Shown here: positions 40,198-41,237 of the stretch, piece after piece
Layout: each line of letters begins with the position of its first letter
How positions within the stretch are numbered: the stretch's first letter is position 1
Assembly (NCBI GenBank): GCA_963709115.1
Contig: CAVPVF010000016.1
Span: 429,986-493,985 of the forward strand
Reading direction: 5' to 3'
From: an uncultured Actinomycetota bacterium
GTDB lineage: Bacteria > Actinomycetota > Actinomycetes > Actinomycetales > Microbacteriaceae
Length of the DNA: 64,000 bases
Made by a program: the position numbers and the translations under genes
Notes under the pieces: generated by a model
Database searches by the model: none
What the model saw: the letters and a program-made list of their open reading frames with translations, nothing else
What the model was told of the DNA's origin: nothing

Positions 40198-40405
40198 CCT
40201 GTAGGGAGGGTGACGAGGGTGACGAAACATCTAACGAGGTCCTGGAGATCGGCGGTCTGAGACGGACTGGCGCCTCTCGCACTATGGCGGCTTCCGGCCG
40301 CGGAGGGGAGTTCTCGGTGACGGCCGACGCGTGTGTGGGTCGACCTCAAAATCGAGCTCACGATGGCAGTACATCTGGGAGAGAGTCACGGCGAATGCGC
40401 TTGAA

Positions 40406-40430
40406 CCCGGCGAGGAGGCCGGGCTATTTT
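40406..40430 (+). terminator. Candidate intrinsic terminator (6-bp GC stem CCCGGC/GCCGGG, loop GAGGAG, then CTATTTTCGG) with no obvious upstream plus-strand gene
   Basis: Sequence cccggc-gaggag-gccggg-ctattttcgg. It lies about 210 nt inside the non-coding stretch that begins after the epoxide hydrolase start codon at 40197. Confidence 0.35.
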
Positions 40431-40583
40431 CGGCATGTCACCGTGGCACGCCTGCGGCGTCGAGCGGGAACTCTACGCTTCCTCGTGTCGGGGCATCGGC
40501 CAGGATGACAGGATGTCCTCGACGAGCGACCTCGTCTCGCTACGTCCCGCTCCCGGGGGCGACGGTCGTCCGAGCTGTCGGAA

Positions 40584-41035
40584 TTTTTTTTTTTTTTTTT
40601 TTTTTTTTTTTTTTTTTTTTTTTTTTTTTAAAAAAAAAAAAAAAAAAAAAAAAAAAAAAAAAAAAAAAAAAAAAAAAAAAAAAAAAAAAAAAAAAAAAAA
40701 AAAAAAAAAAAAAAAAAAAAAAAAAAAAAAAAAAAAAAAAAAAAAAAAAAAAAAAAAAAAAAAAAAAAAAAAAAAAAAAAAAAAAAAAAAAAAAAAAAAA
40801 AAAAAAAAAAAAAAAAAAAAAAAAAAAAAAAAAAAAAAAGGGGGAAGTCAGGGCGTGTGGCGCAGTGGGCGATAAGGGCACATAGGCCCGACAGCGAGCC
40901 GGACCTAGAATTGCGCTGGCTCTGCATCCGTGCCAAAAAAAAAAAAAAAAAAAAAAAAAAAAAAAAAAAAAAAAAAAAAAAAAAAAAAAAAAAAAAAAAA
41001 AAAAAAAAAAAAAAAAAAAAAAAAAAAAAAAAAAA
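40584..41035. repeat. Homopolymer block: T46 (40584-40629), A210 (40630-40839), a 94-nt GC-rich island (40840-40933), A102 (40934-41035)
   Basis: Counted directly from the sequence. It is embedded in a roughly 1-kb non-coding, lower-GC stretch (40198-41237) of a genome that is otherwise about 70% GC. Confidence 0.95.
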
Positions 41036-41237
41036 GGGGGACGGAGACGAACTGGCCGCTATACCCTGCCCGGAGGACTCGGGAGCGCGCGCAGTCGATC
41101 GGGACATGCCATGGCGAAAAAGGGCGTGGGGACGGCTCGTCGCTTCTAAAGGTTCCTGAGCGGGCTTTCTAAATGGTCTCGCATCCAAACATCCATATCG
41201 GGGAGGGTGGAAGCCGGAGACGAGGGAGGCGCCGCGA

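Follow-up and report, generated by a model that had tools for sequence, protein, structure and literature searches.

Phase-variable homopolymers of bacterial contingency loci are ~6–30 nt long, occur in all strains and undergo small changes in length; to our knowledge, stable maintenance of A or T tracts of 100 nt or more in bacteria is not known. Poly(A) retroposons, i.e. LINEs, SINEs and processed pseudogenes, are eukaryotic elements. Recognised classes of long-read artefact include junk or low-complexity reads as well as glitches within reads (PMC6966772), and the literature that we searched contained nothing specific on long homopolymer hallucinations or stalls. Here, we analysed a block of very long A and T runs in a 64,000-bp stretch of DNA (hereafter, the window). 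With a probability of roughly 0.93, the block is an artefact of long-read sequencing or of consensus building and not DNA of the organism, in support of the original prediction, which had favored an artefact over biology.

The block consists of a T46 run directly abutted by an A210 run, a GC-rich island and an A101 run, 452 bp in total (Table 1). Its position and overall size are as originally predicted, except that the island measures 95 rather than 94 nt and the second A run 101 rather than 102 nt. Such a block lies beyond chance, because a whole-window scan for homopolymers of 8 nt or more, of any base, returned none elsewhere in the 64 kb, which have a mean GC content of 71%. Directly 3′ of both A runs stands GGGGGA. 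The flanks and the island have a GC content of 65–66% (island: 66%, i.e. host-like), and the local dip to 45%, previously read as a low-GC gap, is due wholly to the homopolymers. Likewise, the 46-bp foldback claimed for the T46/A210 junction reduces to the trivial complementarity of a T run beside an A run, and the sequence outside the runs contains no inverted repeats. A foldback or duplex-read chimera was considered as a source and rejected, because beyond the T/A junction the two sides show no reverse complementarity.

Neither the island nor the flanks have a second copy in the window, self-BLAST of which gave only chance 10–15-mers, and the exact island sequence had no match as an independent unit among JGI metagenomes. 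ARAGORN found no tRNA within the block; the sole tRNA of the window, tRNA-Leu(GAG), is located at 17456–17540 on the minus strand. No Rfam family exceeded its threshold for the island, which thus does not group with structured or tRNA-derived RNAs. Two sub-threshold Rfam matches over 40512–40652, namely RAGATH-19 on the minus strand (33.7 bits vs. a threshold of 85.6 bits) and ODC_IRES on the plus strand (29.5 bits vs. a threshold of 44), are low-complexity products of the T/A junction alone.

Table 1. Features of the homopolymer locus and its surroundings (positions refer to the window; L010 is the closest sister contig, L001–L003 are further relatives).
Feature	Position	Strand	Remarks
Epoxide hydrolase gene	38985–40151	-	At least 3 frames; lacks first 10 codons and start codon
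Strain-specific cassette (zone of collapsed quality)	40152–41226	.	Homologous to L010; no DNA match in L001–L003
Degraded Cupin_2 CDS	~40219–41159	+	At least 8 frame pieces; contains the three homopolymer runs
T46 run	40584–40629	.	Sequence reading and homopolymer scan
A210 run	40630–40839	.	Abuts T46 directly; extra bases GGGGGAAG come next
GC-rich island, 95 nt	40840–40934	+	GGGGGAAG, then cupin codons ~97–120 (QGVWR...LRWLCIRA)
A101 run	40935–41035	.	Inserted between cupin Ala120 and Gly121; extra G bases come next
Cupin C-terminal codons 121–142 (GG..ELP..PDDSERAVDRDMPW)	41036–41114	+	tblastn and four-way alignment
Small window-only insertions around cupin stop codon (AAAAAGGG, TTCTAAA pair)	41118–41178	.	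Alignment
Intact 150-aa membrane protein	41238–41690	-	Weak DUF6220 match
MarR-family regulator	41743–42285	+	C-terminus altered by 1-bp indel near 42136
Alignment to L010 3245–4382	42219–41042		93.6% identity
Alignment to L010 4385–4458 (island)	40934–40847		79.5% identity
Alignment to L010 4513–4800	40503–40150		76% identity

On sequence comparison, the apparent non-coding gap around the block is a damaged copy of a conserved, ordinary cupin gene: rather than lacking coding capacity, as had been assumed, the interval holds a Cupin_2 CDS ridden with frameshifts and insertions. The conserved cupin protein proved collinear with the plus strand of the window in successive frames over ~40227–41114, where residues 2–142 were recovered in pieces by tblastn, and the gene copy of the window does not form an intact ORF. 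We collected 745 homologues of 142–151 aa, including annotated cupins of Agromyces, Microbacterium and Microterricola, and intact copies are present on the short-read contigs L012 (MEGAHIT naming) and L013 (Logan). The corresponding stretch of L010 codes for a small protein, interrupted by one frameshift, whose reconstruction matched Pfam Cupin_2 (PF07883; E=8e-9, 35.5 bits vs. a cut-off of 27.2 bits). The flanks of the block are devoid of codon-position GC periodicity because frame changes are so dense.

Mapped onto the cupin protein, T46 and A210 were inserted at Gly96/Gln97 (VVRVG/QGVWR, the slash marking the insertion point) and A101 at LCIRA/GG, while the island carries four small window-only insertions relative to the codons that it encodes. 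The TTCTAAA pair noted in the original prediction is real, at 41144–41150 and 41167–41173, and both copies overlap window-only bases absent from L010. Our first reading of the interval, based on a collinear 63% match, was that of a garbled alpha/beta-hydrolase cassette like the one in L001; this identity was dropped once L010 had revealed the cupin cassette. Comparing the interval with neighboring ORFs of relatives by tblastx and tblastn yielded compositional noise only.

Sister loci were located using the membrane-protein gene at 41238–41690 as an anchor. L010 (ENA ERZ25039582, contig_31736) derives from another sample; its membrane protein is identical to that of the window in 145 of 150 residues, the closest of the 27 members in its 90%-identity cluster. 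L010 harbors the same cupin cassette without any homopolymers, the left flank, island and right flank forming a single contiguous stretch. At the first junction it reads uninterrupted ...GTCGG/TCAGGGCGTG... (wider context: ...GGTCGTCCGTGTCGG/TCAGGGCGTGTGGCGCA...), where the window contains the insert AA-T46-A210-GGGGGAAG. The second junction is equally uninterrupted (...CCGTGCC/GGCGGAGACG...; wider context: ...CTGCATCCGTGCC/GGCGGAGACGAACT...) and corresponds to the insert A101-GGGG(GA) of the window. Indeed, L010, L012 and L013 all read CCGTGCC/GGCGG(A/G) across the A101 site. None of the three possesses a seed tract at either insertion junction, i.e. tract length is zero at both sites. The first block (T46 plus A210) is flanked on either side by the 4-nt GGAA; the A101 junction lacks a target-site duplication, and no terminal repeats bound the block. 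As L010 represents a different strain (89–95% identity), it formally proves only that the cassette exists in a run-free form. Across ~230 kb of related loci, runs of at least 8–9 nt were absent except in one contig, L011.

Four-way DNA alignment of the window, L010, L012 and L013 revealed that the long runs do not stand alone. There were 497 window-only columns, 357 of which correspond to the three runs and ~140 to small insertions of 1–17 nt that fall within ~680 bp; only 23 columns were absent solely from the window. The length of L010 agreed with that of L012 and L013 across the CDS except for 15 columns. When compared to L010 in 200-bp bins, positions 40100–41300 displayed 13–33% mismatch, with window-only insertions in every bin, vs. 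1–6% mismatch and nearly zero indels over 41300–44392, save one ~400-bp segment exclusive to L010. The burst of errors is thus confined to the strain-specific cassette and ends at the cassette borders. The ~400-bp segment marks a second small variable spot (L010 2642–3245; absent from window ~42100–42400) between the MarR gene and a metallo-beta-lactamase-fold gene, where the synteny of L002 and L003 breaks as well.

Milder noise pervades the window. Alignment to L001 produced 196 gap events in ~17 kb, 185 of them not multiples of three, with clusters at ~34450–34580, 35150–36600, 39000–39800 and 45000–47500. Several genes are broken between frames (e.g. at 36647–39016, 38985–40151, 42311–43223 and 50134–51189): a UvrA-like gene is spread over at least five frame segments, the metallo-beta-lactamase-fold gene is split over two frames and ORFs, and a 423-aa protein known from an Agromyces isolate occupies one frame in L001 and four successive frames in the window (50134–51189). 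Statistics on the longest open frame are uninformative as a measure of frameshifts at the GC content of the window. Because genes are frame-broken and gap lengths are mostly not multiples of three, we regard the window, judging by its alignments, as a noisy, indel-rich consensus of long-read type from an Agromyces-like actinobacterium. Elsewhere in the window, 115 of 156 1-bp indels lie outside homopolymers; the homopolymer-associated indel signature, considered as a Nanopore marker, was therefore not seen. Such non-homopolymer 1-bp indels are atypical of a well-polished Nanopore consensus and fit very low coverage, without thereby identifying the platform.

The interval between the epoxide hydrolase and membrane-protein genes is, to judge from its gene content, a genuine strain-variable cassette site, since relatives carry differing genes there. 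L001 is syntenic with window positions 32918–40151 and 41212–44397; an unrelated cassette of 1155 bp, encoding an alpha/beta hydrolase, separates the two segments. An alpha/beta hydrolase gene followed by that for the epoxide hydrolase was observed in L001, L009 (a JGI soil contig), L011 and L014; L015 has DUF308 and other genes at this site, L016 a RidA-like gene, and L002 and L003 others again. Aligning the flanks to relatives, as proposed along with the original prediction, hence returned hydrolase or other cassettes in most cases and the same cupin cassette without the block in L010, bearing out the suspicion of a hypervariable site. As for the wider affiliation, relatives of the membrane protein among the matches listed included three Microflora Danica MAGs (90–93% amino acid identity), with Agromyces isolates next (59–76% identity, again among the matches listed). 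Microflora Danica MAGs were obtained by Nanopore-only sequencing, metaFlye assembly and one round of Medaka (PMC12313526).

The left border of the cassette deserves separate mention. The N-terminal domain of the epoxide hydrolase (Pfam EHN) is split between two ORFs, tblastn matches spanned frames –3, –2 and –1, and residue 11 of the L001 protein aligned at window position 40151. The 40150/40151 junction, at which homology switches from L001 type to L010 type, leaves the epoxide hydrolase without its native start codon and its upstream operon partner. It stems either from a chimeric join made in assembly or from genuine recombination that disabled the epoxide hydrolase. Chimeric assembly, previously proposed for the block as a whole, may hold in part at this border; the homopolymers themselves are insertions in collinear sequence and not foreign joins.

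L011 (ENA ERZ25039469, contig_124995) provided a second case. This contig, with a Flye-style name and an ENA accession neighboring that of L010, contains T15-C33-T9 at 7436–7492 (in window orientation, TT-A9-G33-A15). Relative to L014, the block is a clean ~59-bp insertion between flanks of 97.5–97.8% identity with no flanking bases lost, and it adjoins the hydrolase start codon on its upstream side; it is absent from L001 as well. Local noise is only mild here, and there is no cassette conflict. As ~55 kb of Flye-style contigs yielded just this one additional example, L011 does not establish a frequency. A runs followed by G runs recur over the two loci, as A210-G5, A101-G5 and A5-G3 (40840–40847, 41036–41041 and 41118–41125, respectively) in the window and as A9-G33-A15 in L011; this recurrence may be technical, a signature of the base-caller. 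In a broader survey of 2.9 million IMG/VR contigs, A100 or longer was found in 38 stretches (L017–L054), mostly at extreme contig ends, and the T30A30 junction was absent. A few of these contigs have several internal runs (IMGVR_UViG_3300044699_000011, IMGVR_UViG_3300044699_000043 and 2706794495_000003).

Taken together, the block is absent from independent assemblies, disrupts a conserved CDS, coincides with a local excess of insertions and has a counterpart elsewhere. We call it an artefact because its runs are pure insertions in a conserved CDS that are missing from L010, L012 and L013, and because they come with an insertion-dominated burst of noise, pervasive indel errors and the similar block in L011. 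As to its origin, the cassette would have been supported by one or very few metagenome reads, given that it is strain-specific and that co-occurring strains carry others, and the consensus could then not have corrected a poor read segment. A glitch in the supporting read, with the base-caller over-calling bases, may have arisen from slow or stalled Nanopore translocation or from repeated PacBio pulses. Moderate slowing would have left the scattered small insertions and full stalls the long A and T (and G) runs.

The runs might alternatively have arisen at the consensus step, as a variant within the artefact reading: upon collapse of a strain bubble, reads of the hydrolase cassette would have been piled on a cupin-cassette draft, or the reverse, resulting in a mosaic with filler. 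We consider this sequence of events possible but doubtful as the source of the runs, and polishing with alternative hydrolase-cassette reads a possible contributor. Both the loss of 10 codons from the epoxide hydrolase at the left junction and the remaining resemblance to the hydrolase cassette would be explained by a collapsed bubble. In its favor, the window interval of 1060 bp is near the 1155 bp of L001 and far from the ~560 bp of L010. Moreover, window positions 40407–40572 align collinearly at 63% to the L001 hydrolase cassette, which clean cupin sequences do not, and this similarity may reflect a consensus built from mixed strains. The non-cupin bases of the window raise the collinear similarity to the L001 hydrolase to a score of 41 vs. 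a null of 25.4 ± 3.8, a modest statistic, as the score was reached by 2 of 300 shuffles and clean cupin sequences gave z=1.6–2.4. However, the L011 block arose where no cassettes conflict, and we know of no polisher behavior that emits homopolymers of 100–210 nt.

It is very improbable that real poly(dT)/poly(dA) insertions, e.g. by runaway slippage during replication or by DNA synthesis without a template at a break, inactivated the cupin gene. The block is present in the sequence as given, the site is recombination-prone and strain-variable, and L010 is not the same strain, all of which would be compatible with genuine runs. Yet over 1.1 kb around the runs, non-homopolymer insertions abound alongside mismatches, and this burst stops precisely at the borders of the cassette; it counts against this reading because a genuine insertion would not degrade its surroundings. 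Nor do L010, L012 and L013 offer a seed tract from which slippage could have started, the only repeat is the 4-nt GGAA at the first block, with no target-site duplication at the second, and the unrelated T15-C33-T9 of L011 points to a technical cause. Were the runs genuine, a single environmental Agromyces-like lineage of actinobacteria, with a GC content of 71%, would have to possess an unknown form of DNA synthesis, either independent of a template or by runaway slippage.

Equally improbable is a planted block or an error of file format, e.g. one that turned the Ns of a gap into A. While A101 is close to one base more than a scaffold gap of 100 Ns, T46 and A210 fit no fixed gap size, no burst of small insertions like that seen over 1.1 kb would accompany such a block, and a public ENA contig, L011, has its own mixed T/C block. 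Least probable of all is a contaminant joined into the contig, be it a polyadenylated eukaryotic transcript, a retrocopy or an adapter or vector fragment: the earlier suggestion of a transcript draws on a superficial likeness to sequence plus poly(A) tail, but the island shares 79.5% identity with L010, encodes resident cupin codons 97–120 collinear and in register with the flanks, matches the host in GC content (66%) and is not found as an independent unit among JGI metagenomes, and neither adapter nor vector sequence plays a part.

With the block explained as an artefact, its biological weight is nil: what remains is a cupin gene of the ordinary kind, located in a cassette site that varies between strains. 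In practical terms, the block serves as a worked example of a homopolymer-block artefact surviving in deposited long-read metagenome contigs. Such blocks give rise to false non-coding gaps, false poly-K or poly-F ORFs and spurious Rfam matches. Searching high-GC genomes for homopolymers of at least 15 nt that coincide with a local burst of insertions would be a simple filter. More generally, strain-variable cassettes in metagenomes may be covered by too few reads for a trusted consensus.

How, then, does the locus relate to described systems? With poly(A) retroposons it shares a sequence joined to a long A run; however, there is neither a target-site duplication nor foreign sequence, and the insert is a resident gene, which sets the block apart from these elements. 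Like phase-variable tracts, the runs are homopolymers in a CDS that differ in length between strains, but they measure 46–210 nt and sister loci have no tract at all, so that the block does not belong to this class either. Runs of at least 100 A are also a feature of the terminal poly(A) of public metagenome and viral contigs; those are mostly located at contig ends, whereas the block in the window lies inside a contig and has a T run abutting an A run. The closest match is to the junk and glitch artefacts of long reads (Badread; Wick & Holt, PMC6966772), with which the block shares low-complexity sequence, breaks of continuity in otherwise collinear sequence, occurrence in a noisy long-read assembly and absence from independent assemblies. 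It differs from junk reads in that the junk forms part of a contig, rather than making up a whole read, and survived polishing, and from the described junk and glitch classes in its run lengths (46, 210 and 101) and A-then-G signature, which are not described in the literature examined. With these particularities, the block belongs with long-read junk and glitch artefacts.
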